A DNA stretch of 64,000 bases, taken from the IMG/VR virus record IMGVR_UViG_3300033153_006255; one strand, given 5' to 3'. A program made the position numbers and the translations under genes. Source of the DNA: an uncultured virus (IMG/VR IMGVR_UViG_3300033153_006255) (lineage: Duplodnaviria; Heunggongvirae; Uroviricota; Caudoviricetes). Below the pieces are notes generated by a model. It was not told the origin of the DNA. It saw nothing but the letters and a program-made list of their open reading frames with translations, and did not search any database. Shown one piece after another: positions 14,847-39,158 of this stretch (the first letter of the stretch is position 1; the number at the start of each line of letters is the position of its first letter).

Positions 14847-15254
14847 ATGTTTGATAAGAAGTTGAAGATAGGAGATAAGATAATCCTACAGAAGTCTCGG
14901 AATAATTATCAGAAATGGGAGGGACATATTTTCGAGATATTAAGCGTTAGAGAAACTTATTACAATTGCAGAAATCTGAAAATTCCAGGAAACGCAAACA
15001 TCTACTATAACGGAAATCCGAAGGACGAGTTCTGTTTAGCAGACAGAAAAGGCAGATTGGAATATTTTCAAGGGATTTTACCTAAACTGCAGAAGGAGTG
15101 TGTAGATATAGAAAAGCAGATAAAGGAACTTAAGAAATTCCCAACGGAAGAGGATGCCGTTGCTTACAAGATAAGCGAGATTATGCGAACAAAGGGAAAC
15201 GCGAAGGCGATAGCCGCTATCTTGAAAGAGATGAAGACATCTGATTACCTTTAA
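14847..15254 (+). CDS. Hypothetical protein with KOW/SH3-like N-terminus and coiled coil
   Basis: LKIGDKI start; AGGAGGTG SD. Confidence 0.65.
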   Translation: MFDKKLKIGDKIILQKSRNNYQKWEGHIFEILSVRETYYNCRNLKIPGNANIYYNGNPKDEFCLADRKGRLEYFQGILPKLQKECVDIEKQIKELKKFPTEEDAVAYKISEIMRTKGNAKAIAAILKEMKTSDYL

Positions 15255-15318
15255 CCGAAACGGGGAGAAATCCCCGTCTATACGCATTGGCGAGCGTATA
15301 CTGAAGATGGTAGCCGAA
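15254..15318 (+). ncRNA. Type II hammerhead ribozyme 2
   Basis: ACC-GAAAC-gggga/tcccc-GUC (15276-78)-tatacgc/gcgtata-CUGAAGA-UGGU; loop ttggc can pair with downstream gccga. Confidence 0.88.
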
Positions 15319-15504
15319 AATAGGAGGTGACATATGAAAGAAGTGAAACTTTTAGTTGAGTATAGTTCTATAACGAATAATCCTCGTTATATGGTATCAA
15401 TGAAAATATCTAACTTTAAGAATGATAAGGAAACAACTGACAAGAATAAACACTTTTTAAAGAATATAAAAAAATTGGTTAGGATTTACAATAGGTGGTA
15501 AATT

Positions 15505-15908: not shown

Positions 15909-16106
15909 ATGAAATTTAAAGTAGGCGATAGAGTGGATTTGGATGGCTTTGAAACTGGAACAATTGAAGGCATTGATTATATGACTATGAAGTATCACGT
16001 ATTATGGGGTGGTAGGAGTTATCACTGTATAGATGATATAGAATGGGGAGACAAGAATTATATCCCCACAAGAAGCCCTAATGTATGGAAAGGTGTGCCA
16101 AAATGA
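15909..16106 (+). CDS. WKG-tagged small protein 1 (KOW/SH3-like)
   Basis: MKFKVGDRV start; ends NVWKGVPK. Confidence 0.8.
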   Translation: MKFKVGDRVDLDGFETGTIEGIDYMTMKYHVLWGGRSYHCIDDIEWGDKNYIPTRSPNVWKGVPK

Positions 16107-16327
16107 CGAAGGGATATTGTATAAACTGCAATGAATGGTGTGATGAAGTAACTATGAATTCTTATGGAAGAAGTTCTTATCAATGGAATGGTTCAGATTA
16201 TGAATGGTATGACGCAGGCGATACAGAAGATGATGGACCATATATGTGTGCTGAATGTGGTGAAGAGGTAGAAATGAGAGAGTTTGTAGAAAAACCTAAA
16301 AACGAGTGGAAAGGTAACTCAAGGTGA
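16103..16327 (+). CDS. WKG-tagged small protein 2 (Zn ribbon)
   Basis: Start at ATGA overlap; CINC/CAEC; ends NEWKGNSR. Confidence 0.8.
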   Translation: MTKGYCINCNEWCDEVTMNSYGRSSYQWNGSDYEWYDAGDTEDDGPYMCAECGEEVEMREFVEKPKNEWKGNSR

Positions 16328-16548
16328 TACTTATGGAACAACCGTATTGTTTACAATGTGAGATGTTTGTAGATGAAGCACATACAACTTGTAGAGTAAA
16401 ATACTACTATGTATGGAATGGCACTTCCTTTGAAATTGTGGATAGTGAGACAATAGATGAATCATCGTATTATTGTACAGAATGTGGAGGAGATATAATA
16501 TTTAAAGAGGAAATACCTAAAAATCAATGGAAGGGGAAACCAAAATGA
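16324..16548 (+). CDS. WKG-tagged small protein 3 (Zn ribbon, paralog of 2)
   Basis: CLQC/CTEC; ends NQWKGKPK. Confidence 0.8.
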   Translation: MILMEQPYCLQCEMFVDEAHTTCRVKYYYVWNGTSFEIVDSETIDESSYYCTECGGDIIFKEEIPKNQWKGKPK

Positions 16549-16790
16549 AGTTCCGCCCTGCGCAGAAAGTAACCTGCATTAACGATATTAAGAAAACGAT
16601 GGATGGCGATAGAAAGATTTTAATCACTAAAGGGAAAACTTATAGAGTTACTGGATATGATACAATATGGAACTCTGAAAGCAATTTAATAACAGTTATA
16701 AACGATAATGGAGATAATGTTCCATACTCTGAACACAGATTTATAGCGTTTAATCAGTGGAAGGGGAAAGAAAGATGTCTAAACACATAA
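16545..16790 (+). CDS. WKG-tagged small protein 4 (SH3-like)
   Basis: MKFRPAQKVTC; ends NQWKGKERCLNT. Confidence 0.8.
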   Translation: MKFRPAQKVTCINDIKKTMDGDRKILITKGKTYRVTGYDTIWNSESNLITVINDNGDNVPYSEHRFIAFNQWKGKERCLNT

Positions 16791-16975
16791 AAATTGGAGA
16801 TACAGTAAAACATACTCGTTACGATGGGGTATTAAGAAGTGGAGTTGTCACTAGTGTGGACGGAAATCGAATCTGGGCTACATTTGATGGAATTGGTAGT
16901 TCGGCTACGTTTGTAGAAAGAAACAAGATTCATACAGTAATAAAGAAGAATGAGTGGAAAGGGGGTGAAAGATGA
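16775..16975 (+). CDS. WKG-tagged small protein 5 (KOW/SH3-like)
   Basis: IKIGDTV; ends NEWKGGER. Confidence 0.8.
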   Translation: MSKHIKIGDTVKHTRYDGVLRSGVVTSVDGNRIWATFDGIGSSATFVERNKIHTVIKKNEWKGGER

Positions 16976-17214
16976 AGATTGATGAAATCGAAATACGTGG
17001 CACTATCATTATGAAAGCAGACGACCTTGAAGATGATATCATTATCAAGAAGTTTACTCAGGAATTTGAGGAAACAACTCTCGGTAAGATGTTATTAGAA
17101 AAGGGATATACTTGCTTTGATGATGAAGTGGAGGGTAACAACGACGGCGACAGAATGGTGAGGCTTGTATATGACGACTTAGGTCCGGAAGAGGGGGTAA
17201 GGAATGGGAAATGA
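16972..17214 (+). CDS. Acidic hypothetical protein (no tag)
   Basis: 80 aa, ATGA-coupled to the upstream gene. Confidence 0.65.
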   Translation: MKIDEIEIRGTIIMKADDLEDDIIIKKFTQEFEETTLGKMLLEKGYTCFDDEVEGNNDGDRMVRLVYDDLGPEEGVRNGK

Positions 17215-17647
17215 AGAACTAAAAAAGTATTTGCTTGAAGTATTACAGGAAGTATATGACCATAAACTAAATGCTCAAGAGGGGTATGATAAGATAGAAG
17301 AGAAGTTTATGGAAGAATAGTTGACAGCCAGAGGGTAGCGAGTAAGAAATGGGTTTTGTTACCCCTTTACCAACTCCGAAAGTTACCCTCATTTTATATA
17401 GGGGGTGTATTGTGAATAAAGAAATGAAGGAGGTGTTAAAGAAACAGAAGCCGTGGAATATTAGACCGTTAGCACAAGCACTAAAGAAACGGTATAATAT
17501 GGGATTATTGTATAAAGCGTTAAAAAGAAAGGATGTATTGCTCTCTGATATATAATGGAAACTAAGGCGTGTCGGTAGTCGCAAGTGTCAGGACCGAACA
17601 AATTGGTATACCCAGACAGTCTGAACCTTGTAGTTATCCGTTATATA

Positions 17648-17725
17648 GTCGAAACGTTCCCTGTGTATTTAAACGGGGAACGTCATAGCGAAGTTAACCG
17701 TTCGCTATCTGAAGATGACAGGTAA
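17648..17725 (+). ncRNA. Type II hammerhead ribozyme 3
   Basis: GUC-GAAAC-gttccctg/cggggaac-GUC (17682-84)-atagcgaa/ttcgctat-CUGAAGA-UGAC. Confidence 0.88.
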
Positions 17726-17737
17726 AAGGAGCAAGAT

Positions 17738-17944
17738 ATGTTTAAAAAGGGAGATAAAGTAGAATTTGTATGTGAAGATGGAGAAGGAGATTGTAATACA
17801 AGGAAGGGCGATATAGGATATGTAACAGATGTTATTGGAAGAGATGGAGTGAGCATTAGGACAATAGATGGAAGAGAATACTCTCTTTTAAATAAGAGGT
17901 TTAGAAAGCTTCCAGGAAATATTTGGAAGGGGCACAAAAGATGA
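17738..17944 (+). CDS. WKG-tagged small protein 6
   Basis: MFKKGDKV; ends NIWKGHKR. Confidence 0.8.
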   Translation: MFKKGDKVEFVCEDGEGDCNTRKGDIGYVTDVIGRDGVSIRTIDGREYSLLNKRFRKLPGNIWKGHKR

Positions 17945-18171
17945 AAGCTAAATTTAAATTAGGTGATAACGTTGTTTGTATAGGAAGAAGGAATAGTCGC
18001 CTAGAAAACGGGGCTGGCTGGGAAGCTGGACTCAAGTTTGTCGTAACTGAAATTACTTTTGATGAAGCAAGAAAAGAATACATATATTGGAAGGGATTAG
18101 GACACTGTGGAGTATATGAGAAGTATATAGGTTATGCTATTACCAATGTATGGAAGGGGGCTAAAAGATGA
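17941..18171 (+). CDS. WKG-tagged small protein 7
   Basis: KFKLGDNV; ends NVWKGAKR. Confidence 0.8.
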   Translation: MKAKFKLGDNVVCIGRRNSRLENGAGWEAGLKFVVTEITFDEARKEYIYWKGLGHCGVYEKYIGYAITNVWKGAKR

Positions 18172-18413
18172 GCCTAAAAGTAGGAGATAAGGTAAGGATA
18201 ATTGAGGGTGGGTTAGGTATTAGCCCACAGCAAAAAGGAGAAACAACAGTTATTACTGAAGTAGGTGGAATTTATACTGGTGGTAGTGATACATACGGTC
18301 CTATGCCTGGAGTGAAAGCGAAGAATATTTATAATCCAGCATATAATGATTGGGTAGCAGAAAGAAGTTTTGAGTTGATTAGTAGGAATGTATGGAAAGG
18401 CGGTAAACGATGA
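18168..18413 (+). CDS. WKG-tagged small protein 8
   Basis: LKVGDKV; ends NVWKGGKR. Confidence 0.8.
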   Translation: MSLKVGDKVRIIEGGLGISPQQKGETTVITEVGGIYTGGSDTYGPMPGVKAKNIYNPAYNDWVAERSFELISRNVWKGGKR

Positions 18414-18664
18414 AGTTCAGTGTTGGAAGTAGAGTTAATGTTAAAAGAGGTGTAGGAATAGGTGGAAAATACACCCACCAGAATGGAACTATACTACATA
18501 TTGGTAAAAGTAGTATTTATGACGATACTTTATACTCTATTGAATTTGATAACGACATTGGTGGACATAATTGTAGTGGTCTGGGAAAAGAAAGACATTG
18601 TTGGAGAGTAATGGAAACAGATGTATATAGTCTAAATCAATGGAAAGGTAAACAAAGGGGGTAA
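18410..18664 (+). CDS. WKG-tagged small protein 9
   Basis: MKFSVGSRV; ends NQWKGKQRG. Confidence 0.8.
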   Translation: MKFSVGSRVNVKRGVGIGGKYTHQNGTILHIGKSSIYDDTLYSIEFDNDIGGHNCSGLGKERHCWRVMETDVYSLNQWKGKQRG

Positions 18665-18665
18665 G

Positions 18666-19007
18666 ATGAATAAAGGGGCTGTAATTTTATTATGCCTCGC
18701 CCTTACTGGATGTAGAGAACCTGTGTATACAATAACAGCGTATTGTCCGTGTTCTGCGTGCTGTGGAAAGTGGAGTGACGGATACACAGCGACGGGAAAG
18801 AGGGCTTTGGCAAAGAATAGGATAATAGCAGTAGACCCGAAGGTTATACCATTACATAGTAAGGTGTATATAGAGGGATTAGGATATTATTACGCCGAAG
18901 ATACGGGCTCTGCTATTAAATGGAATAAGATAGACATATTGTTTGATAGTCATAACGAAGCATTAGAATTTGGAGTTCAATACTTGAAAGTTAAGGTAAT
19001 AAAATAA
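18666..19007 (+). CDS. 3D-domain (MltA-like) cell wall protein, possible lipoprotein
   Basis: TITAY...TATG...IIAVDPKVIPL.SKVYIEG.G.Y.AEDTGSAIK.NKIDI; LTGC lipobox-like. Confidence 0.9.
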   Translation: MNKGAVILLCLALTGCREPVYTITAYCPCSACCGKWSDGYTATGKRALAKNRIIAVDPKVIPLHSKVYIEGLGYYYAEDTGSAIKWNKIDILFDSHNEALEFGVQYLKVKVIK

Positions 19008-19018
19008 GGAGAAATAAA

Positions 19019-19324
19019 ATGCCACCTGAAAATAACAGATGGAATGAAAGAAGAGTAACTAATCTACATAGATTTGAAGTAGATTTAGTTATGAATGATA
19101 ATGTATCTATTGTAGTAGTAACATTGACCATTGCTATTACATTTGTAAGCGTAGTATTTGGAATAATGTTTTGGCATTTGGATAGAGATAAAGCCTTATT
19201 AAACAATGGATTTACTAGGACAAGAATTGTTGGACGTGGAATGGAATGGACAAAAAATGACGGTAATGAAAAATATATGTTATTAAGGGGTCAATTAGAA
19301 GAATTGGTGGAGGATGAATCATGA
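19019..19324 (+). CDS. Membrane protein
   Basis: One hydrophobic helix. Confidence 0.55.
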   Translation: MPPENNRWNERRVTNLHRFEVDLVMNDNVSIVVVTLTIAITFVSVVFGIMFWHLDRDKALLNNGFTRTRIVGRGMEWTKNDGNEKYMLLRGQLEELVEDES

Positions 19325-19578
19325 AGCGTATGAAGTATGAAGATTTAAAGAAAGGTATGATTGTAAGAGTTAGGATGTATAGGAGACGTCCTCCACATAT
19401 GCATTGGGGGCAAATGTATTTTTGTGGACAGAATGTTACCATAAGCAAAAAGGACTCTGGTTGTGTATATATAAAAGAGGAAACAAGGAGTTATGGAGAA
19501 AAGAGTTTATGGAATCCGTGTGCATTTGAAAGAGCTAACGTATGGACAGGAGGAGAACGATGCGCTATGAAGACTTAA
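19321..19578 (+). CDS. WTG-variant tagged small protein 10
   Basis: YEDLKKGMIV; ends NVWTGGERCAMKT. Confidence 0.75.
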   Translation: MKRMKYEDLKKGMIVRVRMYRRRPPHMHWGQMYFCGQNVTISKKDSGCVYIKEETRSYGEKSLWNPCAFERANVWTGGERCAMKT

Positions 19579-19835
19579 GAGTTGGTATGGAAGTAGAGTG
19601 TGACAGTTCTAGGTTTAATGATTTTTTTAATGGAAAAGCAACTGTAGTATGTTTAGACCCCATTAGCGTTATAAGGGATGATTGTCTCGCTGGTAGTGGA
19701 ATAATTTATAAGCATAAAGATGGAAGAGCACAAAGCTCTTGGCTATTACACAAATCTGATTTGAAATATATTAAAGTAGTTAGATATAACGAGTGGAAAG
19801 GTAAAGCCCGAAACGTAAGTAGGGTTGTTACGTAA
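19560..19835 (+). CDS. WKG-tagged small protein 11
   Basis: MRYEDLRVGMEV; ends NEWKGKARNVSRVVT. Confidence 0.75.
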   Translation: MRYEDLRVGMEVECDSSRFNDFFNGKATVVCLDPISVIRDDCLAGSGIIYKHKDGRAQSSWLLHKSDLKYIKVVRYNEWKGKARNVSRVVT

Positions 19836-19909
19836 CAGCCATAAGAACTATGGAGGGGTGAATAGTTTAATGTGGCATAATGCCCGAAAGGGCAAGGAAG
19901 GAGCAACAG

Positions 19910-20119
19910 ATGTTAGTAAAAGTAGCAGAAATGGGAGCAGAGGTAAGAGAGTTTTCACTTGGAGCAGGTGCAAGTGTAACCGATGCTTTAGAAGCAGCTG
20001 AAATTGAGTCATCTGGTAGGGATATCAGAGTGAACTCTGAAGCAGCCACAATGACCACAGAATTACAGGATGGCGACATCGTCACTCTTGTCAATAAAGT
20101 GGAAGGTGGAAGTAACTGA
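19910..20119 (+). CDS. Ubiquitin-like (ThiS/MoaD beta-grasp) protein with C-terminal GG-SN
   Basis: AAGGAG SD before ATG 19910; 69 aa; SVTDAL...IRVN...LQDGDIVTLVNKVEGG then SN. Confidence 0.85.
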   Translation: MLVKVAEMGAEVREFSLGAGASVTDALEAAEIESSGRDIRVNSEAATMTTELQDGDIVTLVNKVEGGSN

Positions 20120-20347
20120 AAACAAACGACTTATGACAAATCATAGTTGTTAAAATAAGTTGCTAACGGGGGGAGAGAACAACCCCATTCTCTCCCGCTA
20201 CTTGAAAGGAAAGTAGATGTTCTAAGTGTCACGGTAAGTGGAAATAGAAAACTAAGAGGAAATAACCTCAAGCCGAATGAGAATACGAATCTGAGTATGT
20301 ATGAAGTCGGCAGACGCTCAGAAATACTAATGAAAGGAGATGACTAA

Positions 20348-21505
20348 ATGCGAAAGAAGTTTGCTGTAAGAATGCCATCAGTTGAATGGTATTTAGAAGG
20401 CAATAAACAAACTGACGCGATTGGTGAACCGGTAGTAGATGCTTTGAAAGAGTTATCAAGAAAAACAGAACTTGCTGTCAACTTTGAGATACCACACGGA
20501 GAGATAGTAGATTCGAATCTTGATAGACAGATAAATGTCTATGTATGGTCATCGCCATTTGTGGATACGCCTGTAATGAGAAACGAGTCATTGAAGATTA
20601 AAGGTAAAGTGATTAAATTGAATGAAGGTCAGAGCGACTGCTTTGATTTGAAAACGTGTATAAAAGACCTTGTTCAAACATATCTGAAGCCGATAAACGA
20701 CGATGATGGTAGAGTAATCGGATTGGTAGAGAATAATAACATCTTTATTCCTTTTGACATCTTTCACGAAGTAGAAACAATGAATAATAGTGCAAAGGAA
20801 ATGATAGATGTGTTTATCTATATTATATCCGAAGCAAGAAAGCATATTATCTGCGATAAGAAAATACTAGAACAACGCATAGCAGATATGCCTTTGTTGG
20901 GATATGTAAAAGGCATTATCGAGAACAGTGCGAAGATGGATGAAAAAAGAGTCAATGAGCGTGAATCAATATTGAAAAGCATTGATTCGATACATAAAAA
21001 TCTAGTGGTTGAATATCGTAGATTAGATGAAGTAAATGCTTATCTATCATTGAAATCAATAACCGACAACGAGAAACTTCTGATAGATAGAAACAGAAAT
21101 GCGTTAACTGGTCTATTGAAAAATGGGTATAAGTCCATAAAATGGGCTGGAAACACACTCAAGGCAATGACGGAACCCATTGGAATTGAATTTGAAGATA
21201 AAGAGTTCAAGCTTGGTGGATATGAAATAACAATTGGTATCAACAACTCAATCCGTATTACGAATAAAAAGAATCCGAAAGACGGATTTGACCACCCTCA
21301 CGTTAGAAGTGGTATGCCTTGTTGGGGAAATCTATCAAAAACAGCAACGAAGTTTGTGTCTCAATTTGAATTTGTGCCTTTGTTGGATATGATTTTAAGT
21401 TATTTGAAATCATATAATCCAAAGGACGCATATCATAGATTGGGATATTGGTCGGACAATCAATGTGAAAGGTGTTTAGAAGATGAGGACTGTTGTCAAT
21501 GTTAG
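20348..21505 (+). CDS. Prokaryotic E2-like (ubiquitin-conjugating fold) multidomain protein
   Basis: C-terminal HPHVRSGMPCWGN resembles the E2 HPN...G.xC active-site motif; directly follows the Ubl gene; ends CERC...CCQC. Confidence 0.65.
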   Translation: MRKKFAVRMPSVEWYLEGNKQTDAIGEPVVDALKELSRKTELAVNFEIPHGEIVDSNLDRQINVYVWSSPFVDTPVMRNESLKIKGKVIKLNEGQSDCFDLKTCIKDLVQTYLKPINDDDGRVIGLVENNNIFIPFDIFHEVETMNNSAKEMIDVFIYIISEARKHIICDKKILEQRIADMPLLGYVKGIIENSAKMDEKRVNERESILKSIDSIHKNLVVEYRRLDEVNAYLSLKSITDNEKLLIDRNRNALTGLLKNGYKSIKWAGNTLKAMTEPIGIEFEDKEFKLGGYEITIGINNSIRITNKKNPKDGFDHPHVRSGMPCWGNLSKTATKFVSQFEFVPLLDMILSYLKSYNPKDAYHRLGYWSDNQCERCLEDEDCCQC

Positions 21506-21514
21506 GAGGAATAG

Positions 21515-22854
21515 ATGTCAAAGAAAAAAAGAAGGAAGAAGAAAAAACTCCTACCAAATCTTCTTGATTTTAATGAAGAACCTGCTGATGTAGAGAAAAT
21601 GAGCACGGTAGTATCATCGCCGGGACACGATGTCTCTATAGGAAGCGTATCGATAGTTATGTCGAAAGACATATACCAGAAACTAATGTATTATGTAATG
21701 GCTACAACTGATGAAATTAGTGGTCTTGGTATATGTGCTTGGGATAACGAAAGCATACGCGTTGAAGAGATATTTCTACTAAAACAGGAAAACACTTCAG
21801 CATCAACTGAATTAGATGACGAGGAAGTAAGTAAGTTAATGAATCAACTTATTAGAAACGGTAAGGATGTATCAGGACTTAGGTTCTGGTGGCATAAAGA
21901 AGCCGCGTGAGTCAATTCTGTTTGACATGGAAGATGTATTTGGAACGCAAACATGAAAGGTATGAATTGATGGCGAGTGCCACACACTTGGTAACAGGTG
22001 AAAGAAAAACTCTCTCTAATTGATTAGGAAGCCTTAACGTAAAGCCGAAGGTAACTATGCACAAGGCGAAAGCCAGTGTCAACGACTAAACGAGAGAGCC
22101 CCTGAAAAGGGTGATGCAATAGTCTGAACTCTATGGAAACATAGAGAAGCCCATCCGAAGAGGTGGGCTCGCCTATTTATATAGGTCTTAAAGTAACAGA
22201 ATGTCACACGCTGAAATGGACATATTCTGGTCAGCAACGGATGATAAGTGTTGTGAGAAACTTGGTGGTGGAGACTTCACTATCAGTATAGTAGCCAACA
22301 GGAATAAGAAAATGCTTGGAAGACTTGATATATATAAGCCATTTCCCGTCACAATTAGTGGTATAGACATCAAGATTGAAGATGAAATAGTATTTGATAT
22401 ACCACAAGATATACAAGATGAAGTTGATGAGAAGGTCTCAAGAAGAGTGACGTATTATAATCGAGGAGGATATTATGGCGGACTTTATAGAACCGAGAAA
22501 AAAGCAAATTGTGGTGCTGAATTCTTAGATAGAGACGGTTTGAAAAAGCGTTATAATAGCGACAAATACGCATTTGAGGCTTATGATGAAGAGAAGAAGG
22601 AGTGGGTGTTAGAGAGGGACTTCTATAATTCTGTTGAAGTTCAAGATGGAAAAAAACAGAATGCAATATTCGTTGATGGTATGGTGTATATGGAGGATGG
22701 TAGAACGTTTAATCCTGCTAAGGACAATAGAATATTTGGAGATGTACCACCTCCAGAAATGCTAGATGTTTGCGAGGGTGAACATATCAAACTATGTAAG
22801 GATTGTGCTTATAGGGTTGAATGTTTAGCATACTTCACGAAGGTAGGAGTCTAA
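21515..22854 (+). CDS. JAB/MPN+ metallopeptidase, two exons (21515-21895 and 22204-22854)
   Basis: Joined exons give TDEISGLG...FWWH|SHAEMDIFWSATDD, the E...HxH-x7-S-xx-D JAMM motif; 343 aa in frame. Confidence 0.85.
21896..22203 (+). ncRNA. Group I intron (308 nt, no ORF) in the JAB gene
   Basis: Exon ends in U and intron ends in G; P1 GUGGCAU/GUGCCAC (21977-83); P7 gacta (22084-88)/tagtc (22120-24); P3 ctctct/agagag; GNRA-capped P2 and P9. Confidence 0.88.
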
Positions 22855-22939
22855 AATGGGGGAGAAATCCCCCAAGGCGAATGAAAAGGCGAACTGTGCT
22901 ATGCCTAAGTCGCTTGACGGCACAGAATTAGGAGGAATT

Positions 22940-23203
22940 ATGATTAAAAGAGGAGATAAAGTAAAAATTCTACACGCTGATTTGAATGAACAATTAACTG
23001 ATGAACAATTACTTGATTATGAAAAAACAGTAGGAAAAATAGGAACTATAACAGATGTAATAGATATTGGGGAACTTGGTGGAACTATTACTGTTGATAT
23101 ACCTGGAAGAAGGAATCCAACTCATCATAACGGTGGGTATATTTTTACAAATGGTGAATTTTGTTTAGTCAGTAAGAACGTATGGAAAGGAAAGAAGAGA
23201 TGA
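22940..23203 (+). CDS. WKG-tagged small protein 12
   Basis: AGGAGG SD; MIKRGDKV; ends NVWKGKKR. Confidence 0.8.
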   Translation: MIKRGDKVKILHADLNEQLTDEQLLDYEKTVGKIGTITDVIDIGELGGTITVDIPGRRNPTHHNGGYIFTNGEFCLVSKNVWKGKKR

Positions 23204-23451
23204 AGATTGGAGATAAGGTTATAATAACTGGACCAAAAGATGGAAATTGGGACCAACTTAATGAAGTAGAAACAAAAGAGCATAATAAATTAATAGGAAA
23301 GCGTGGAACAATAGAAAATATAGCCGGAACGACGTTTCCCTACCAATTAAATGTTGATGGGAAAACGCTAACTTTATACTTTGGAGAAAATGAGATAACA
23401 AAGTGTAATAATAACATATGGAAAGGGGATAAAAAGTATGCGCACAGATGA
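23200..23451 (+). CDS. WKG-tagged small protein 13
   Basis: MKIGDKV; ends NIWKGDKKYAHR; overlaps the E1 start. Confidence 0.8.
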   Translation: MKIGDKVIITGPKDGNWDQLNEVETKEHNKLIGKRGTIENIAGTTFPYQLNVDGKTLTLYFGENEITKCNNNIWKGDKKYAHR

Positions 23452-24094
23452 GAGATTTAGCAGGCAATTAGGGATATTGGACCCGGATAAACTGAAGTCT
23501 AGGGTTACTGTGATAGGAGCAGGTGGGATAGGTAGTTGGACAGTAGCAATACTAAGCAGAGTTGGATTTGACGATATAACTGTGTATGATAACGATATTG
23601 TGAGTGAAGTAAATCTCGGTTATCAGTTCTTTAGGGATAAAGATATAGGTCGCCCGAAAGTTGAGGCGTTAAAGGATGTCATAAAAGAGTTTTCGAATAT
23701 GGACTTAAAGATTAAGAACGAGTTGTATAAAGGTGGTGCTTATAAAGAACTTATGATATGTAGTGTAGATAGTATGGACGCTCGTATCAATATATGGGAT
23801 AAGATAAAGATGAAACCTCAAGTCAGATGTTATGTAGACGCCCGAATGGGCGGTGAAGTAATGCGTTTATATACTGTTAATCCTATGGACGTAGATAACA
23901 TTGAGGAATATGAGAAAGAATTGTATCCGTCGGAAGAGGCTGAACAAACAGATTGCTCATTTAAGTCTATTATGTATAATGTTGGAACGATAGCCTCGTT
24001 TATAGTAAACAATGCAAAGAAGTATCTCTTAAATGAAAAGTATGACAAAGAGATATTTTTCGACTTGAAGTCAATGGCTATGGTAAGACGATAA
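23438..24094 (+). CDS. ThiF/MoeB-family E1-like adenylyltransferase
   Basis: RFSRQ, VIGAGGIGS, DNDIVSEVNLGYQ, GRPKV, SVDSMDAR, YVDARMG; candidate catalytic Cys in QTDCSFK. Confidence 0.92.
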   Translation: MRTDERFSRQLGILDPDKLKSRVTVIGAGGIGSWTVAILSRVGFDDITVYDNDIVSEVNLGYQFFRDKDIGRPKVEALKDVIKEFSNMDLKIKNELYKGGAYKELMICSVDSMDARINIWDKIKMKPQVRCYVDARMGGEVMRLYTVNPMDVDNIEEYEKELYPSEEAEQTDCSFKSIMYNVGTIASFIVNNAKKYLLNEKYDKEIFFDLKSMAMVRR

Positions 24095-24239
24095 TGTATA
24101 AAGAAAACACAGATAGCGTACGTAGATACCGTAGAAACTGGTATAGATAGAATAAATAACGAGGGAGATTACGTTTTTGATAACTGTAGATATATAGAGT
24201 TAGATAGTAACAGAAGAAGATGAAGGTAAGGAGATAATT

Positions 24240-24488
24240 ATGGGAAAGATTACAGCAGGACCTTGGAGTATAGGAACTAGGATTGTGTGTGTAGAACGTC
24301 CAGCATGTAATTCGAATATACGAGTTGGCGATACTGGAACTGTAGTAGCAACAATTCGGTCTCATCAAAAAGAATGCGACAAGATGATAAAAATAGATAA
24401 AAAGAAATTAATATACCTATTTATTGAACAACATATGCACTGCTATAAAAAGATTAATGAGAATCTTTGGAAAGGTGGTAAAAGATGA
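24240..24488 (+). CDS. WKG-tagged small protein 14
   Basis: SIGTRIVC, RVGDTGTV; ends NLWKGGKR. Confidence 0.75.
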   Translation: MGKITAGPWSIGTRIVCVERPACNSNIRVGDTGTVVATIRSHQKECDKMIKIDKKKLIYLFIEQHMHCYKKINENLWKGGKR

Positions 24489-24757
24489 GACTATTTAAGG
24501 TGGGAGATACTGTAAAATTAAGTAGTGATGAAAACAAAGAGTATTATGAGGACGAATTTGGAATAAAGCTGGGCGTGCATTTTAAAATAAATAGAATAGA
24601 AAAATGTGAAGACGAAATGGACTCGTGTAGAGAAGTGGGATGTCCTGGATTAATTAATGGAATATGTTTTGCTGAAATGGATTTTGAAGCAGAAGAAATA
24701 CATCAGTTTGAATTAGAACTAGTTTCAAGTAATGTATGGAAAGGTGGAAAGCGATGA
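24485..24757 (+). CDS. WKG-tagged small protein 15 (GCPGxING subfamily)
   Basis: FKVGDTV; ends NVWKGGKR. Confidence 0.8.
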   Translation: MRLFKVGDTVKLSSDENKEYYEDEFGIKLGVHFKINRIEKCEDEMDSCREVGCPGLINGICFAEMDFEAEEIHQFELELVSSNVWKGGKR

Positions 24758-24993
24758 GTATAAATAAGTTTAAGGTTGGTGATGAAGTTATTGTTAATAA
24801 GAATGGATTTATATATAACTGGACTAAACAAGACTCAAAAGGATTTGTAATGGCAGTATATGAAAAAAGTTTAAGGATAAAATTTTATGAAATGACGGGA
24901 CCCATAGAACCTAATACGCCGTATATTTGGAATATAGACTCAAGACATTTAGAACATCTTACTAGGAATGAATGGAAAGGAAAACCAAGATGA
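24754..24993 (+). CDS. WKG-tagged small protein 16
   Basis: KFKVGDEV; ends NEWKGKPR. Confidence 0.8.
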   Translation: MSINKFKVGDEVIVNKNGFIYNWTKQDSKGFVMAVYEKSLRIKFYEMTGPIEPNTPYIWNIDSRHLEHLTRNEWKGKPR

Positions 24994-25009
24994 AAGGGGG
25001 TGAGAATGA

Positions 25010-25333
25010 ATGGTAGCCAGATTAGGGCATAAGCACTACACGGAAGAAGAAAAAGCCTGGATGATTAGGAAGGCAGCATTACCTAAATATAGGCAGAAGG
25101 GAGGACAAAGACTCAAACTAACGAAGTTACATAGAGCATTTAGGAGAAAGTTTGAGTCGGTTCATACACTAGATGGATTTGGTGTATCTATCAAGAAGTA
25201 TTTAGGTGTAAGTAGCAAGAAGCGTCCGTATCATAAGAGAATGCAAAATACACTAACCTTAGATGTTATGGAAGCGAAGTTAAGACCTATAAATGATATG
25301 ATAAACAATATCAAGTCGTTTATGGGAGTATAA
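25010..25333 (+). CDS. Basic hypothetical (possibly DNA-binding) protein
   Basis: YTEEEKAW helix start, K/R-rich. Confidence 0.6.
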   Translation: MVARLGHKHYTEEEKAWMIRKAALPKYRQKGGQRLKLTKLHRAFRRKFESVHTLDGFGVSIKKYLGVSSKKRPYHKRMQNTLTLDVMEAKLRPINDMINNIKSFMGV

Positions 25334-25396
25334 GAATCGATGGAATATGGGGAGAAAAATCTCCCCTTTTCCATACAATCTACAAAAGGAGAATAA

Positions 25397-26260
25397 ATGG
25401 GCATTAAGGGTGGTATTAAAGGATGTGCTTTAAAGGGGTGCTCATTAGAGGTAGGAAAAGAAAAGTTCGAAGCATTAGAAGCCTTTGTAAAAATGATTGC
25501 TAAGGGCGATATGAACTCACTTTTCTTGTTTGGAGAGGGTGGTATCGGGAAAACCGAGACTATACTACGGACTATTGAGAAAGAAGATGTAGAAGCCATA
25601 TACATAAATGGTGTAGTAACGCCGCTAGAATTGTATCACAAGTTATATGAGAACAATGGAAAACTAATTATATTAGATGACATAGAAGGGGTTTTGAGTA
25701 ACGATAGAGCCGTTTCTTTTCTGAAAGCGGCGACTTATGGATATAAAAATAAACGAATTATATGTTATCCAACATCAAGCCCGTTATTGCGTGCACCAGA
25801 AGCGTTTGAATTTACTGGGAAAATTATATTATGTACGAATCACTTTCCAGATAATCCATCATTGGAAGCTCTGTATAGAAGAACTCTATACTATGAGTTG
25901 AACTTATCTTTTACGGAAAAGATTGCGTTATTTAGAGATATAACAGAAAGACCTTATAAGGGAATATCAAAGGGAAAGCGACGAATGATATGTGAGTATT
26001 TAATTGGTATTATATCTGAAGCAACAATAAGATTAAGTATTCGTGAACTATTTAAGGCATTTGAGATATATAAATCTAATCATAGGGATTGGAAAAAACT
26101 CGTGCTTGAATTACTCCATATAGATACAGATATTGAAGCATATATGAAGATAATGAAGGTGGGGAGTAATATTAACGCGCAGATTAGAATGTTTAGAGAA
26201 ATTACTGGTAAATCAAGAAGCACGTTCTTTAGAATTAGGAAGCGTGTAGATAGTATGTAG
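25397..26260 (+). CDS. AAA+ ATPase with C-terminal HTH
   Basis: GEGGIGKT Walker A, LIILDD Walker B, ILCTN sensor, ITGKSRSTFFR. Confidence 0.8.
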   Translation: MGIKGGIKGCALKGCSLEVGKEKFEALEAFVKMIAKGDMNSLFLFGEGGIGKTETILRTIEKEDVEAIYINGVVTPLELYHKLYENNGKLIILDDIEGVLSNDRAVSFLKAATYGYKNKRIICYPTSSPLLRAPEAFEFTGKIILCTNHFPDNPSLEALYRRTLYYELNLSFTEKIALFRDITERPYKGISKGKRRMICEYLIGIISEATIRLSIRELFKAFEIYKSNHRDWKKLVLELLHIDTDIEAYMKIMKVGSNINAQIRMFREITGKSRSTFFRIRKRVDSM

Positions 26261-26533
26261 AATGTAGAATGAATGGATTACCGAAGTCTCATGAAGATGT
26301 GAAACGCCTCGTTTGAGGCACAAGATAAGTGCGAAAAAGGTAGTGATTTAGCGCGAAAACATTAGTGACGGCTGGATTTCAGCGAATACGGGCTTTTTCG
26401 CTCTATTTACGCATATTCGGCGTTCATTTTAGTCTGTCCTGACACTAATTTGTGCTTAAAAATCAGTTTCACGCAAATATACGCAGGTGATATCTCAACG
26501 AACTTATTTTGTAGAATGAAAGGAGCAAGTTAA

Positions 26534-26743
26534 ATGAATGGAGACCTTGAGCATTATATAGAAACAGCAATCAGAAGAAGACAATGTAGTGAATGTGGTA
26601 GGACAATTTATCCCAAGAAACAACACTTTGCTATTCGCACAAGAACACGTTGGGGAACAAGTAGAGTTAATATATGCTTTAGGTGTTTGGGAATATTAGC
26701 AAGAAAGTATTGTAATGTATGGAAAGGAAGGAAAAGCATATGA
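26534..26743 (+). CDS. WKG-tagged small protein 17 (Zn finger)
   Basis: CSECG...ICFRC; ends NVWKGRKSI. Confidence 0.8.
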   Translation: MNGDLEHYIETAIRRRQCSECGRTIYPKKQHFAIRTRTRWGTSRVNICFRCLGILARKYCNVWKGRKSI

Positions 26744-26958
26744 TAAATATAATGCATTGCACATCGTGTCACCACGAATGGGTGTCTATGAAAGAGAAGG
26801 ATACTTGCAACTGGTGTGGATGCGAAGGGTATGTATTGGCTAGTGAGAACGCTATGGCTGATATATGTAATAAAGAGTTCTTTAAGGAATTAGTAAAGAT
26901 TGTAAAATTGAAAGAAAAAATGAGGGAAGTAAAAGATGCGAAAAATAAGAGTCGGTGA
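26740..26958 (+). CDS. Small Zn-finger protein
   Basis: CTSCHHEW...CNWC. Confidence 0.65.
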   Translation: MINIMHCTSCHHEWVSMKEKDTCNWCGCEGYVLASENAMADICNKEFFKELVKIVKLKEKMREVKDAKNKSR

Positions 26959-27193
26959 CCACTTAGAGTGGAATGATGAATCTGTTTTAAATAAATACGA
27001 TATAATGGGTGAACGTAGATATATACTTGTAGAAAAAATAACTGAATGTGACTCTCGGGGTCCAGGTTGTGACGAAATGGGATGTCCCGGAGAGATAAAT
27101 GGCGAATGTTATGGTGCTAGTGGTAAACGGGTTTCAAATCTAATGTGTTTGAAATTAGGTAACTTTAATGTTTGGAAAGGTAAGAAAAGATGA
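26936..27193 (+). CDS. WKG-tagged small protein 18 (GCPGxING subfamily)
   Basis: IRVGDHL; ends NVWKGKKR. Confidence 0.8.
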   Translation: MRKIRVGDHLEWNDESVLNKYDIMGERRYILVEKITECDSRGPGCDEMGCPGEINGECYGASGKRVSNLMCLKLGNFNVWKGKKR

Positions 27194-27468
27194 GACGATT
27201 TAAGAGAAAGCAAATAATAAAGATAGGAGATAAATTAGTTTATAATAAAGGAAGTGTTAGGAATGAAGAAGCCATTATGCAAGGGAGAGCATATATAAGA
27301 GTAGATACTATAGAGAAATGCCATTCAGAAAATCAGAATTGTAGGAAAATTGGATGTCCCGGACATATAAATGGCGAGTGTTATGGATATTCGAGAATCG
27401 GCAGAGGTGGAGACATTTTAGCAGTAAAGGTAGGATATGCAAATGAATGGAAAGGTGAAAAGAGATGA
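27190..27468 (+). CDS. WKG-tagged small protein 19 (GCPGxING subfamily)
   Basis: IKIGDKL; ends NEWKGEKR. Confidence 0.8.
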   Translation: MRRFKRKQIIKIGDKLVYNKGSVRNEEAIMQGRAYIRVDTIEKCHSENQNCRKIGCPGHINGECYGYSRIGRGGDILAVKVGYANEWKGEKR

Positions 27469-27707
27469 TGAGGATTTTTAAGAAAAAACGAAAGAAACAA
27501 GAGCGGTTTATAGAAGGACAAAGAGTAAGGTGTATAAAGGGTGGAAGAGGGGGTTCTGGTTGGAGACTTCATAGAATATTTGTTATAGGGAAAGCGGAGT
27601 ATTGGGAAGACGATATAGTTGGAGTTCTATGGCCGAATGAGGGAGGAAGTGGCATCTTTTCTGACAGCGTTGAAATACATAATCAGTGGAAAGGAGCTCC
27701 AAGATGA
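27465..27707 (+). CDS. WKG-tagged small protein 20
   Basis: FIEGQRVRC; ends NQWKGAPR. Confidence 0.8.
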   Translation: MMRIFKKKRKKQERFIEGQRVRCIKGGRGGSGWRLHRIFVIGKAEYWEDDIVGVLWPNEGGSGIFSDSVEIHNQWKGAPR

Positions 27708-28156
27708 AGACATCTGTAATAGAGAAGTTTATGTTAGAGTCGAATCGCATTGAGGGGGAAGATAGATTGAACCCCGGCGATGTTGAGGCTGTAGAGTATG
27801 CGTTATCAATGAAGATACTTACGATATATGACTTATTTACTATACACTCTTTACTTGGAGAGTATTTGAAGAAGGAATGGGTTGGTAGGTTTAGACAGGT
27901 TACGATACGAGTTGGAGACGATATAAGGTTTCCGAATCCCTATGCAGTGCCTGTGTTGATGGAAAACTATATGAAAGACTTTAAGAAATTGGATTCGTGG
28001 GTAGCACACAACAGATTTGAAAAGATACATCCGTTTAGAGACTTGAATGGTAGAATGGGACGGATTATATGGCTCACGAAAGCATTAAAAGAAGGGTATA
28101 ATTTTGGGATACCTTTTTTACATATGTATTATTACCAGTGTTTAGAAAGGTATTAA
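27704..28156 (+). CDS. Fic/Doc-family protein
   Basis: ESNRIEG and FEKIHPFRDLNGRMGR. Confidence 0.88.
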   Translation: MKTSVIEKFMLESNRIEGEDRLNPGDVEAVEYALSMKILTIYDLFTIHSLLGEYLKKEWVGRFRQVTIRVGDDIRFPNPYAVPVLMENYMKDFKKLDSWVAHNRFEKIHPFRDLNGRMGRIIWLTKALKEGYNFGIPFLHMYYYQCLERY

Positions 28157-28157
28157 A

Positions 28158-28832
28158 ATGCATTACTATGGATATATCTATAAAACTACGAATTTAATAA
28201 ATGGTAAAATATATATTGGTCAAAGGAAGGGAGAATTTTATCCATATTATTATGGTAGCGGAATTCATTTCTTAAGAGCACTTAAATTACATGGACGAAA
28301 CAATTTTAAGGTGAATCTCATTACCTATGCTAAGACAAAAGATATATTAAATAGGCTTGAGAAAAAATATATCGATAACCACAGAAAAAGAATTGGAAAA
28401 AAGCGAATGTACAACATTGCTGATGGTGGAGGTGGGCGTAGTTGTCCCTTTACCGAAGAACACAAATTGAAACTCAGCAAAATACTTTCTGGTAGACCGT
28501 TAACGGAAGAACATAAATTAAAAATAAAGAAGTCACACTCTAATCCTGAAACAAAACGAAAATGTATAGAATCACATAAAGGTAAGTATCCTTCTGAAAT
28601 GACAAGAAGAAAAATGAGTCTATCAAATTCCGGTAAAAAGAGTGTTAATTTTGGCAAAAGATGGATTGTGAATAAGAGATTATGTAGAGAAAAATCAGTA
28701 TCTAAGGAAAATATACTATATTATTTGAACAATGGTTGGGTATATGGACGCAAACCTATGTCAAATAAGCAAAAACAAAAAATTAGTAAATCAAAAATAA
28801 TGTATTATTACCAAACACTTGAAAGACAATAA
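28158..28832 (+). CDS. Free-standing GIY-YIG homing endonuclease with NUMOD3 repeats
   Basis: GYIYKTTNLINGKIYIGQ, YYGSG, repeated TEEHKLK segments. Confidence 0.88.
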   Translation: MHYYGYIYKTTNLINGKIYIGQRKGEFYPYYYGSGIHFLRALKLHGRNNFKVNLITYAKTKDILNRLEKKYIDNHRKRIGKKRMYNIADGGGGRSCPFTEEHKLKLSKILSGRPLTEEHKLKIKKSHSNPETKRKCIESHKGKYPSEMTRRKMSLSNSGKKSVNFGKRWIVNKRLCREKSVSKENILYYLNNGWVYGRKPMSNKQKQKISKSKIMYYYQTLERQ

Positions 28833-29337
28833 AGGAGAAAAGATGATACAAATAATATGTAATACTTGTGATAAAGTTATGGAAGATGGTAAGTATAGAA
28901 TTACAGTAATGATAAATAGAGAAGGTAAGGAACGACACTATTGTTCACCGGAATGTTGTAACAAAGATATGAAATATCTTGACATAAAAGGAGAAAGTAA
29001 ATGAAGAAAACAATTGTATCTTGGAGTATTGAAGTGGAGTGGGATGATGGAAGTATAGAACACTTTTCGGACGTACCGGATGATGTAGCAATGTCGGTGG
29101 ACGAATACCTTGGTGATGTTGAACAGGACCGAACAGAGGAACTAGAATCCGGGGAGGATGAATGAATTATTTTTTAATTTGAATTTATGAATAAGATTTT
29201 TCTGGAAGCTTCTTTTTTTGTTTTTTTAGGCCAAATTTGAGACGCTGCTAGACGCGGCGTGCCAGATTTTTTATGCCAAAATTAAACTATTTTAATTTAT
29301 TTGTCGACGAGCTCTTAAGTTTTTTTACTAGACCCCC

Positions 29338-29366
29338 TTGACTTTTTGAGGTTTATGGGGTATACT
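29338..29366 (+). promoter_or_regulatory. Sigma70-type promoter
   Basis: TTGACT-N17-TATACT. Confidence 0.65.
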
Positions 29367-29424
29367 TTAAGTGATATCGGGTAGGGTATCCGATATCGTT
29401 ACACATACCATTAAATAGAAGGGA

Positions 29425-29652
29425 ATGAGAATGAAAAAAAGCGAGAGGATAGTAATAGACATCGAAGATGAACTCATGTTAGATATCCTAAAGGATACAT
29501 TAGCAGATTCTAGAACACCAAAGAACGAAACTATTATGAGAATATTTGATATAGGGCTTTCTATAGTAGCTAGCCACGTATCAAATAGATGTCCTAGGTT
29601 GGCTAAGAACCTTGATATATGGCTTGAGGTGGGAGGTGATACACTGCCATGA
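29425..29652 (+). CDS. Hypothetical protein
   Basis: 75 aa downstream of the promoter. Confidence 0.55.
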   Translation: MRMKKSERIVIDIEDELMLDILKDTLADSRTPKNETIMRIFDIGLSIVASHVSNRCPRLAKNLDIWLEVGGDTLP

Positions 29653-30026
29653 CAGAACATGAAGTAATTATGAATAAAAAGAGCGTAACCCCATACAAAA
29701 TGTTGTTAGGCGCTATTTTCAAACAGTTAATACAAGACGCGCTTATGCAAAAATACTACTATAAACTTAGAAAAGAGGTGAGAATGTACCCCGAGCGATT
29801 TACTTATGACAGGAAAACATGGATTGAGAAATGTGCGGTCATAGGTGGACAAGCCCGTCGTACTATTATGTCTAAGGGGTTGGAAGAATTAATCAGTGGG
29901 TCTACAATACATATGGACCCAAATTACTTTCGCAAGAAATATTTAGCACAAGAAGAAGAAGTCTATAAAATAGGTTATGAGAAGTTTGCATCAAATAAAC
30001 ATAGGTTAAAAAACAATGCCGTTTGA
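29649..30026 (+). CDS. Hypothetical protein
   Basis: 125 aa, ATGA-coupled. Confidence 0.6.
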   Translation: MTEHEVIMNKKSVTPYKMLLGAIFKQLIQDALMQKYYYKLRKEVRMYPERFTYDRKTWIEKCAVIGGQARRTIMSKGLEELISGSTIHMDPNYFRKKYLAQEEEVYKIGYEKFASNKHRLKNNAV

Positions 30027-30051
30027 CAAGCCCCTACCGATATGGTATACT
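30023..30051 (+). promoter_or_regulatory. Sigma70-type promoter
   Basis: TTGACA-N17-TATACT with extended TG. Confidence 0.75.
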
Positions 30052-30074
30052 ATGGGGCAAGAAAGGAGAAAAAA

Positions 30075-30284
30075 ATGAATGATAAAATTATAATAAGGGA
30101 CTCGTCGTTGGTAGGAGATTTACTGGTACGAGTAGAGTGTCGTGGTACAGAAGAAGATAAAAAAGAAATGGATTGCAGCCTTGGATGCGATTACTGTAAT
30201 GAGTGTGAGCATTTAATACATCTTAATAGGGGGGTTGTAATTCCCATGCCAGAACCATATGACTATGTTGGAGGTAACGAATAA
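30075..30284 (+). CDS. Small Cys-rich protein
   Basis: AAGGAG SD supports a start at 30075. Confidence 0.55.
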   Translation: MNDKIIIRDSSLVGDLLVRVECRGTEEDKKEMDCSLGCDYCNECEHLIHLNRGVVIPMPEPYDYVGGNE

Positions 30285-31066
30285 TGCCAGTTGTAGGTTT
30301 TAGGTGTATAAAAAGTAATAAAAATGTATCTTTCGAAGAGTGCATGGCGTGTGCTCTCACCTATGAGAATAAGTGCCATTTTACGGCCGATATACTCAAG
30401 GGCATAATTACAGAAGTTACTGAGACTAGAGAGAGTATATCTATCACCAAATTGATAGGGTGTCCGCGTTCAACTTACTTGGTCAACAGAAACGACGTAT
30501 ACGTATCACCTGAAAAGTTATATTGGGCATTCAGGGGCACCCTAGCACACGCTATTATAGAAAAGTATATGGCAGACCCAGACGCTGTTGTTGAGAAACA
30601 CTTTAAAAGGGTTCTGAATGGTATAAAAATAACTGGTAAACCGGATATAATTATACCAAAGCATGAACTTATGCGAGACTATAAGACAACTAAGGAAGTA
30701 CCATTTTTTAATAAGGTATATTTAAACCACGAGATACAGTTAAATCTTTACAGGTGGTTGGTAAGAAAGGAATACAAGGTTGAAAGATTAGAAGTAGTTT
30801 ATATGGATATGAAACGCTCTAAAGTCATACCAGTAAAGAACATATGGAAACTTTCTGATTGTGAGGACTATATTAAAAAACACTCCTCGGTCCTTGCTGA
30901 GGCATATGAAAAGAATATCCCACCAGATGTGCCGGGGGAGTTTCCTCTTTACTGGCAGTGCAGAGACTTCTGTGAAGGTAGAACGATTTGTGCTAAACTA
31001 TACCAAGAGGAAATAAGAAAGGATTTTGATAAATGGGCAGAAACGGAGTGGTGCGATGCTGAGTGA
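30284..31066 (+). CDS. Cas4-like PD-(D/E)xK exonuclease
   Basis: GCPR...RGTLAH...ITGKPD...DYKT...QLNLY...WQCRDFCEGRTIC. Confidence 0.85.
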   Translation: MPVVGFRCIKSNKNVSFEECMACALTYENKCHFTADILKGIITEVTETRESISITKLIGCPRSTYLVNRNDVYVSPEKLYWAFRGTLAHAIIEKYMADPDAVVEKHFKRVLNGIKITGKPDIIIPKHELMRDYKTTKEVPFFNKVYLNHEIQLNLYRWLVRKEYKVERLEVVYMDMKRSKVIPVKNIWKLSDCEDYIKKHSSVLAEAYEKNIPPDVPGEFPLYWQCRDFCEGRTICAKLYQEEIRKDFDKWAETEWCDAE

Positions 31067-31448
31067 GAATTTAAAGTTGTTTTTAGATAAAAATAGAGAA
31101 TACATTAATACTATATCTGGTATACTATCGGAAAGAATGCCAGAAGAACCCGTACCTCTTATACAACATGTCAATAAGCTCGTGGTTCATAAAGCTAGGA
31201 TAAGCATATTATTAGCTGAGATAAACTCGCTGCTTGATTTAGCTGAACACGATGCTTTATTACCTAAGTCTAAGCATCTGACTGAGTTAGATAGGCAGGT
31301 ACGACAAAAAAGCGCGGTGAGAGACTATCGCATGTGGAGGGATATACTGTATGGATTAATGACATCAATCGACTCAAGTAGAAATTGGGCTCAAAGCGCA
31401 CTGGCGTTTGAGAAAACACACGCATTGCTTGAAGGTAGCGGTGCATAA
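31026..31448 (+). CDS. Helical hypothetical protein in the recombination module
   Basis: 140 aa ORF; true start may be slightly downstream. Confidence 0.55.
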   Translation: MINGQKRSGAMLSENLKLFLDKNREYINTISGILSERMPEEPVPLIQHVNKLVVHKARISILLAEINSLLDLAEHDALLPKSKHLTELDRQVRQKSAVRDYRMWRDILYGLMTSIDSSRNWAQSALAFEKTHALLEGSGA

Positions 31449-31460
31449 AAAGGAGAAGAA

Positions 31461-32003: not shown

Positions 32004-32004
32004 A

Positions 32005-32199
32005 ATGGGTGTAATAAAAGGACAAAAAGAGTATAGAAAATATAAAGATGGGCAAAGGTTAACAAGAAAACAGGCAATATTGGCACAATGCTATGACTGT
32101 AATGGGGGGGATGAAAGTAACGCCGATTGCCAGGGCTACTCGTGTCCGCTATATCAATATCATCCACATCGCACAGTAGCATTTCAGGCATTAAAATAG
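32005..32199 (+). CDS. Small Cys-rich protein
   Basis: AILAQCYDC...C....CPLY. Confidence 0.6.
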   Translation: MGVIKGQKEYRKYKDGQRLTRKQAILAQCYDCNGGDESNADCQGYSCPLYQYHPHRTVAFQALK

Positions 32200-33962: not shown

Positions 33963-33963
33963 A

Positions 33964-39131: not shown

Positions 39132-39158
39132 TGTTATATAGAGGAGGTCAGCGTCGAG

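Follow-up and report, generated by a model that had tools for sequence, protein, structure and literature searches.

Positions 21896-22203 of the window, the 64,000-nucleotide stretch of viral DNA analyzed here, hold a group I intron. To judge from its sequence, it is very probably an ORF-less, self-splicing element lodged in a JAMM peptidase gene, between the codon for the first His of the catalytic site and the Ser-His codons that follow; it is likely a selfish passenger at this position, and the interrupted peptidase would trim the product of a Ubl gene encoded nearby.

Exons, splice junction and host gene

Both parts of the peptidase gene lie on the plus strand. Exon 1 (21515-21895) begins with ATG, comprises 381 nt or 127 codons, encodes E67 and H127, and has F-W-W-H at its C-terminal end (final codons TGG CAT). 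Exon 2 (22204-22854) encodes 216 aa followed by the stop codon, lies in the frame of the ORF at 22201-22854, and opens with S-H-A-E-M-D-I-F-W-S-A-T-D-D (TCA CAC first); it supplies H129, S137, and D140 in the numbering of the spliced protein. The intervening ORF-less intron, also on the plus strand, is 308 nt long, with A as its first base (after U) and G as its last (before U). When the exon coordinates were joined by script, removal of these 308 nt united 127 and 216 aa in a stop-free protein of 343 aa with the site H-S-H-x7-S-x2-D; the bounds and in-frame join given in an earlier note on this DNA are thus exact. Unspliced, exon 1 runs into a TGA at 21908-21910, which yields the 131-aa entry of the ORF track; the 217-aa entry begins at ATG 22201-22203, the final three bases of the intron, in frame with exon 2.

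A search of 5.8 billion proteins turned up few that are closely related to exon 2. A metagenome scan confirmed 128 homologous loci, and the 80 retained were compared with both exons by tblastn. At 46 loci both exons were matched, and in 45 of these residue 127 of exon 1 abuts residue 1 of exon 2 without a gap. A further 32 loci gave an exon 2 match only, and 31 of them read ..(W)HSH.. in frame directly upstream of it. The two loci with an exon 1 match only (L017 and L050) are contiguous by their combined coordinates. Altogether, 78 of the 80 metagenomic loci are uninterrupted at the insertion point of the window, which supplies the intron-less homologues that the earlier note had proposed to look for. 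Given that these homologues run through the insertion point, its proposal that the two ORFs are one JAB/JAMM gene cut between H and SH is upheld, and its alternative of homologues that are naturally two polypeptides was not borne out.

A peptidase that is naturally split, with the two ORFs encoding separate polypeptides that assemble and the spacer being no intron, would fit the in-frame ATG at 22201 and the 217-aa protein that gene callers give. Such an arrangement is barely credible, given that the homologues are single polypeptides across the junction, that the spacer scores as a group I intron with support from covariation (see below), and that ATG 22201 is the lineage-conserved end of this intron, with no Shine-Dalgarno-like run visible before it.

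The sequence of the joined gene identifies it as a predicted phage JAMM/MPN+ (Rpn11-like) peptidase. The catalytic motif of JAMM/MPN+ enzymes is E ... H-x-H-x7-S-x2-D, consistent with the alignment of the homologue profile to solved JAMM enzymes. A profile built from 38 intron-less homologues matched an Rpn11-like structure in the PDB (6fjv, E 3.8e-11), RPN11 (E ∼1e-9), and CSN5 (E 1e-4 to 1e-3). Residues E67, H127, H129, S137, and D140 of the spliced protein are invariant across the 38 homologues, and the window protein keeps 12 of the 13 family-invariant columns, the remaining one being changed from V to I. A Pfam search with either half of the window gene gave no match, PF14464 (Prok-JAB) included, and in seven of eight intron-less homologues PF14464 was likewise below its cut-off (15.2-20.6 bits versus 25). 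The catalytic residues (E, H-x-H, S, and D) and the profile match are shared with the JAMM isopeptidases Rpn11 and CSN5; by contrast, the window protein carries a C-terminal extension of ∼200 aa that ends in a Cys cluster, and its relation to Prok-JAB is sub-threshold.

Structure and lineage of the intron

When the stretch 21700-22400 was searched, the Rfam group I model RF00028 matched 21903-22146 over the full model (positions 1-253) with an E-value of 7.7e-14; the score of 57.2 bits is modest, the gathering threshold being 50. Two Rfam scans of the whole 64-kb window, in gathering and E-value modes, did not report this RF00028 intron because of their speed filters and not because the intron is absent. 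Introns of this kind can escape an Rfam scan when the contig is long; in this case, only the short-stretch search revealed the match. In addition to the group I model match anticipated in the earlier note, all of the pairings named there were present, namely P1 with its U.G splice pair, P2, P3, P7, and P9, and the loop of P1 measures 81 nt.

Core structure was assessed in an alignment of the window copy with 15 compact related viral introns (16 sequences). Of the 42 pairs in the RNAalifold prediction, 26 show compensatory changes. Addition of the five pairs of P7 gives 47 family pairs (26 of the 47 with compensatory changes), for which 98.1% of 751 cells were paired, as compared with 83.1% in shuffles; none of 500 shuffles reached the observed pairing, and sliding the partners gave only 41-51% paired. 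The window intron forms 44 of the 47 pairs, and its P3-P9 core helices, including the P3/P7 pseudoknot, are present. The three exceptions are mismatches, U-U in P4, C-U in P8, and A-C in a GCG/CGC helix; the one in P8 is avoidable through an alternative register with a GAAA loop.

All of these elements are on the plus strand. P3 pairs 22010-22016 with 22092-22098, and seven of its seven pairs covary in the family; it encloses P4/P5 (22024-22058) and P6 (22059-22079), and P4, P5, and P6 all covary. P7 (5′ strand 22084-22088, 3′ strand 22120-22124) has five of five standard pairs in all 16 sequences and P9 (22129-22146) is invariant, a constancy that is partly due to the relatives having been found with a P7′-P9 pattern. 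The family alignment, which also defines P9, places P8 at 22099-22113, followed by J8/7 up to the 3′ strand of P7, and P9.2 at 22172-22185. Between P9 and P9.2 lies P9.1 (22148-22169), with a z-score of −3.63 and covariation in seven of eight pairs. The 3′ tail (22186-22203) closes with the terminal G22203 in an ending that is conserved in the lineage; in family members this ending lies directly 5′ of unrelated exons, which supports the 3′ site.

The 5′ site was located by comparing every U at 21870-21915 with every G up to P3. The best helix closed by a U.G pair joins the last seven bases of exon 1 (21889-21895, the 5′ strand of P1, with U21895 at the splice site) to the internal guide sequence at 21977-21983 (the 3′ strand of P1), both on the plus strand, and has 7 bp, four of them G-C. 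Every other candidate helix had at most 6 bp and at most two G-C pairs and broke the reading frame, the next best having 6 bp with no G-C pair. The intron begins with AAA, as do most of its relatives. The P1 and P2 placed by Rfam, with a 5′ site after U21912, were rejected because the in-frame TGA would then fall inside the exon.

The loop of P1 is formed by an insert (L1; 21896-21976, plus strand) that is far longer than the corresponding loop in relatives and no more stable than shuffled sequences (z +0.12); a loop of this length could slow the formation of P1. To see whether the insert derives from the exon of a former host gene, it was compared with all fetched loci by blastn-short and tblastx, which gave chance-level matches only (E of at least 0.047). 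Between the guide sequence and P3 sits the P2 hairpin (21985-22000, plus strand), which has 6 bp and a GUAA loop (−6.5 kcal/mol, z −2.09) and is absent from related introns. P10 is weak, with only two continuous pairs as judged by eye, as compared with 7 bp in the intron of locus L005 (see below).

Partial matches to the core were found by blastn in 110 records of phage genomes, including phages of Staphylococcus, Vibrio, Bacillus, and Enterococcus, and some of the Vibrio phage matches are annotated Intron_gpI. The best relative by blastn, at 70.9% over intron positions 112-269, is the intron of Nitratidesulfovibrio phage SRB7757 (L081), which lies in an nrdD-like gene and has an HNH-type ORF after P9.1. 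A scan of viral contigs with a 28-base pattern taken from P7′-P9 of the window retrieved 53 loci (L083-L135) that have P9, the P9.1 loop, the P9.2 hairpin, and the 3′ ending in common; across this large lineage, P7-P9.2 is conserved along with the 3′ end. With L081, they resemble the window intron in their P3-P9.2 architecture and have an identical P9, P9.1 loop, and 3′ ending. Their hosts, in the loci sampled, are mostly head, portal, terminase, and tape-measure genes: eight of the 13 exons tested belong to the major head protein family phrog_1357, which is interrupted at many different sites, and the others include tape-measure, P22-like portal, and terminase genes. ORFs are found in many of the 53 copies, located either within P6 or downstream of P9.1, and one 39-kb contig holds two lineage copies ∼1.2 kb apart (L113 and L114).

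The window copy departs from these relatives in its 5′ part. In the 15 compact relatives, P1 has 6-8 bp and a loop of 6-12 nt in 11, 20 nt in one, and 45 nt in one, the script having given no single clear value for L098 and L112. They have no P2, and their guide sequence is 4-6 nt from P3; by contrast, the window copy has the 81-nt loop, a GNRA-capped P2, and a gap of 26 nt. The hosts differ as well, being major head, tape-measure, portal, terminase, or nrdD genes in the relatives and a JAB peptidase gene in the window.

The unstructured length of the P1 loop, the weakness of P10, the one mismatch in P4, the lack of an endonuclease gene, and an RF00028 score under that of the intron at L005 and L003 (57.2 versus 92.9 bits) would all fit a decayed intron that no longer splices, in which case the JAB gene would be a recent pseudogene and the Ubl system would either be dead or run without it. 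This is unlikely, given that the core retains all but three of its 47 pairs, with lineage-specific compensatory changes in P3, P4, P8, and P9.1, and that the splice-site U.G pair, the terminal G, and P7 are intact. Moreover, both exons are open and retain 12 of the 13 invariant residues, and the neighboring Ubl, E2-like, and E1 genes are all intact. An intron that is competent for splicing and a peptidase that is functional are therefore plausible on the strength of the intact core and the conserved residues, and we infer that the window intron is spliced.

Phage group I introns are known in protein-coding genes, among them td, nrdB, and nrdD of T4 and genes of Twort-like and SPO1/Bastille-like phages. 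The window intron shares with these the Rfam Intron_gpI core, insertion in the codons of a conserved catalytic motif, presence in some relatives and absence from most, and the existence of ORF-less and endonuclease-bearing versions. It differs from them in its host, the JAB/JAMM gene of a Ubl module, and in having no visible P7.1/P7.2 insert. The intron hosts named in the excerpts of PMC11878797 used here are DNA polymerase, terminase, thymidylate synthase, and ribonucleotide reductase (RNR) genes, with JAB/JAMM not among them; in the literature searched, no paper ties group I introns to JAB/JAMM/Ubl genes. The view in the earlier note that a JAB host is unusual is consistent with the absence of such a host from the literature searched, but the case is not unique, since a relative has another intron 18 nt away. 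In summary, the window intron is a member of a common phage lineage in a new class of host gene.

A second intron in the JAMM motif

The two interrupted loci among the 80, L005 and L003, are one identical sequence with a 358-nt insert that scores 92.9 bits with RF00028. The insert lies six codons (18 nt) downstream of the window site, at H-S-H-S-D-M-G|V-F-W. It shares with the window intron an orthologous JAB gene (exon identity 45-57%), the interrupted motif, the lack of an ORF, and the last nine bases. A very long P1 loop is also common to both, although that of L005/L003 (129 nt) is structured (z −3.08). By contrast, the L005/L003 intron differs in its length (358 nt), its P1 of 8 bp, its P10 of 7 bp, an insert resembling P7.1/P7.2, and its guide sequence; in its core, the window intron is closer to L081 than to the intron of L005/L003. 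The insert is thus a different intron in the same JAB motif, and the pair is a further example of one catalytic motif interrupted by distinct introns at sites only a few codons from each other.

In both the window and L005, the intron ends in an ATG that is in frame with exon 2. An exon 2 search of 1.84 billion representative sequences returned 426 proteins at an E-value of at most 1e-3; 149 non-self proteins were among the matches listed, and 16 were fetched. Three of these 16 (P0012, P0035, and P0056) start with M-S-H in place of the H-S-H that is invariant in intact homologues, and two start with M-V-F-W in place of the M-G-V-F-W of intact homologues. Such starts may reflect further intron-terminal ATG codons in frame with exon 2, as this is the pattern expected of them. 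A scan of viral contigs for the DNA encoding the M-S-H proteins returned only four intron-less homologues, three of which read TGGTGGCAT at the site. Searches of phage databases with the region and with both exons gave no match, and searches of viral contigs with exon 2 and P0002 gave no relative. A scan of genome contigs returned only four loci, in Myxococcales and Binatia metagenome-assembled genomes, and these give no clue to the host of the phage.

The two insertions could be read more ambitiously. On that account, the JAMM-motif codons of phage Ubl-system peptidases would have been colonized repeatedly, by at least two different group I introns whose sites are separated by 18 nt, and the atypical long-range P1 of the window copy (81-nt loop plus GNRA-capped P2) would make the peptidase depend on a folding step and so gate the Ubl/E2/JAB/E1 system, the intron being a switch and not a passenger. 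We consider this a long shot.

The Ubl module and the role of the intron

The window derives from a tailed phage, with a Mu-like portal, large terminase, capsid, tail tube, tape measure, and DnaB-type helicase. Upstream of the peptidase gene, on the same (plus) strand, 19880-20119 encodes a ThiS-like Ubl of 79 aa (Pfam PF02597, 25.0 bits; cut-off 22.5) that ends in GG followed by SN. In its homologues, GG is followed by one to five further residues, or the Ubl is present as two tandem copies; given these tails, a trimming peptidase is needed. The tandem di-Ubl seen at some of the module loci resembles a polyubiquitin precursor. In the bacterial BilABCD system, according to the portions of PMC10557695 drawn on here, a JAB-type DUB removes the residues that follow the conserved Gly of the Ubl.

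Positions 20348-21505 (plus strand) encode a protein of 385 aa, the C-terminal domain of which is a candidate E2-like domain. In each of the 12 longer loci examined, the gene immediately 5′ of JAB encodes a homologue of this large protein, which has no annotation, and H316, P317, C325, and G327, near the C-terminus, are invariant in the family. In an AF2 model of the protein (pLDDT 76.7), the best matches of residues 241-370 are to E2 enzymes (Z 6.0-6.7, which is below the safe level of the tool), and E2s account for over half of the 30 top-ranked rows of this comparison. The His-Pro...Cys stretch appears to resemble the active site of E2 enzymes. Searches with the protein by Pfam (PF14460 included, E up to 1), PHROG, PADLOC, PDB profile, and Foldseek gave nothing at thresholds. 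The E2 assignment, based as it is on a predicted model, is suggestive.

Downstream of the peptidase gene, and separated from it by two small ORFs, 23438-24094 (plus strand) encodes an E1-like adenylating enzyme of the ThiF family (218 aa; Pfam PF00899, 73.2 bits), the adenylation domain of which is matched by the PADLOC E1-E2 models. Of the 12 longer loci, 11 have a ThiF gene adjoining JAB, and the twelfth contig ends inside JAB. The conserved module of Ubl, E2-like candidate, JAB, and ThiF E1 spans 19880-24094 in the window and recurs at L001, L002, L013, L022, L041, L047, L051, L064, L069, L070, and L080. As far as the same portions of PMC10557695 describe it, BilABCD is similar in its order (Ubl, E2, JAB-type DUB, and E1) and in a Ubl with Gly followed by a few residues; by contrast, the window module is phage-borne, its E2 is only suggestive, and its E1 is a short ThiF domain of 218 aa. 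No defense role is implied for the phage module. At the intron-less locus L047, an HNH endonuclease ORF (7787-8128) lies directly after the E1 gene of the module.

Several other features of the window were recorded. The two small ORFs between exon 2 and the E1 gene belong to a set of ∼21 small plus-strand ORFs at 16086-34105 (e.g. 23183, 24468, 24737, and 27173) that have unrelated bodies and a common N-x-W-K-G-x-x-R end. The DNA at these gene ends carries a common TGGAAAGG-type signal, and the next ATG follows 12-20 nt on at most of the 21 sites; the signal is probably a ribosome-binding or coupling signal within the last codons of the preceding gene. A type II hammerhead ribozyme with a conserved core at 15253-15319 (plus strand; RF02276, 43 bits, threshold 37, E 2.9e-7) comes right after the ORF at 14847-15254 and was unreported by the whole-window Rfam scans. 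The large terminase ORF (7528-9921, minus strand; 798 aa) shows terminase domains only from about residue 449, which leaves the N-terminal ∼440 aa outside them. Free-standing ORFs resembling homing endonucleases, with a NUMOD3 motif and an HNH domain, lie at 28158-28829 and 40577-41035 (both plus strand), the former just downstream of a Fic/DOC-domain ORF (27686-28153); they are 6 and 18 kb from the JAB intron, and nothing connects either to it. A common 8-mer beside the HNH ORF hinted at another intron near 41014, a candidate that was discarded after 38800-42200 gave no Rfam match.

The course of splicing can be proposed by reference to the group I family. The last seven bases of exon 1 would pair with the guide sequence at 21977-21983, free guanosine would attack after U21895, and the freed end of exon 1 would attack after the terminal G22203. 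The ligated mRNA would then be translated into a single peptidase of 343 aa; without splicing, translation would end four codons into the intron and leave an inactive fragment of 131 aa. The peptidase would most likely trim the residues after GG of the neighboring Ubl, would perhaps reverse conjugation, and would act together with the products of the adjacent E2-like and E1 genes. Given that the window copy has no endonuclease gene, it would be either immobile or mobilized in trans. The intron itself is most likely a selfish passenger at a conserved, hard-to-delete site. Elements of this type usually insert, as here, in the most conserved codons of a gene, and selfish-element behavior accounts for everything seen.

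The excerpts of PMC11878797 used here report that, in Bastillevirinae, four of eight spliced phage introns were spliced only in infected cells, and unaided self-splicing can therefore not be assumed. Condition-dependent splicing has also been proposed for phage introns in that source. Conditional splicing of the window intron, in which host factors or a late stage of infection would, for example, set when the peptidase and hence mature Ubl appear, corresponds to the suggestion in the earlier note that splicing could time Ubl maturation; it could draw in addition on the unusually long P1 loop and extra P2, which might make folding dependent on a factor, a circumstantial argument. However, 78 of the 80 homologous loci have no intron at the motif, so the system works without one, and the lineage occupies many unrelated structural genes, as expected of a selfish element; no observation made here speaks for a timing role. 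A regulatory intron is for these reasons very unlikely, and a selfish passenger remains the preferred account.

For annotation, the two ORFs are to be joined as one peptidase of 343 aa; left unjoined, the phage Ubl module appears to have no intact JAB. The case also brings to light a viral intron lineage that is abundant and whose 3′ end is conserved. The host module is possibly the more interesting biology, in that a tailed phage carries a seemingly full set of Ubl, E2-like, JAB, and E1 genes.
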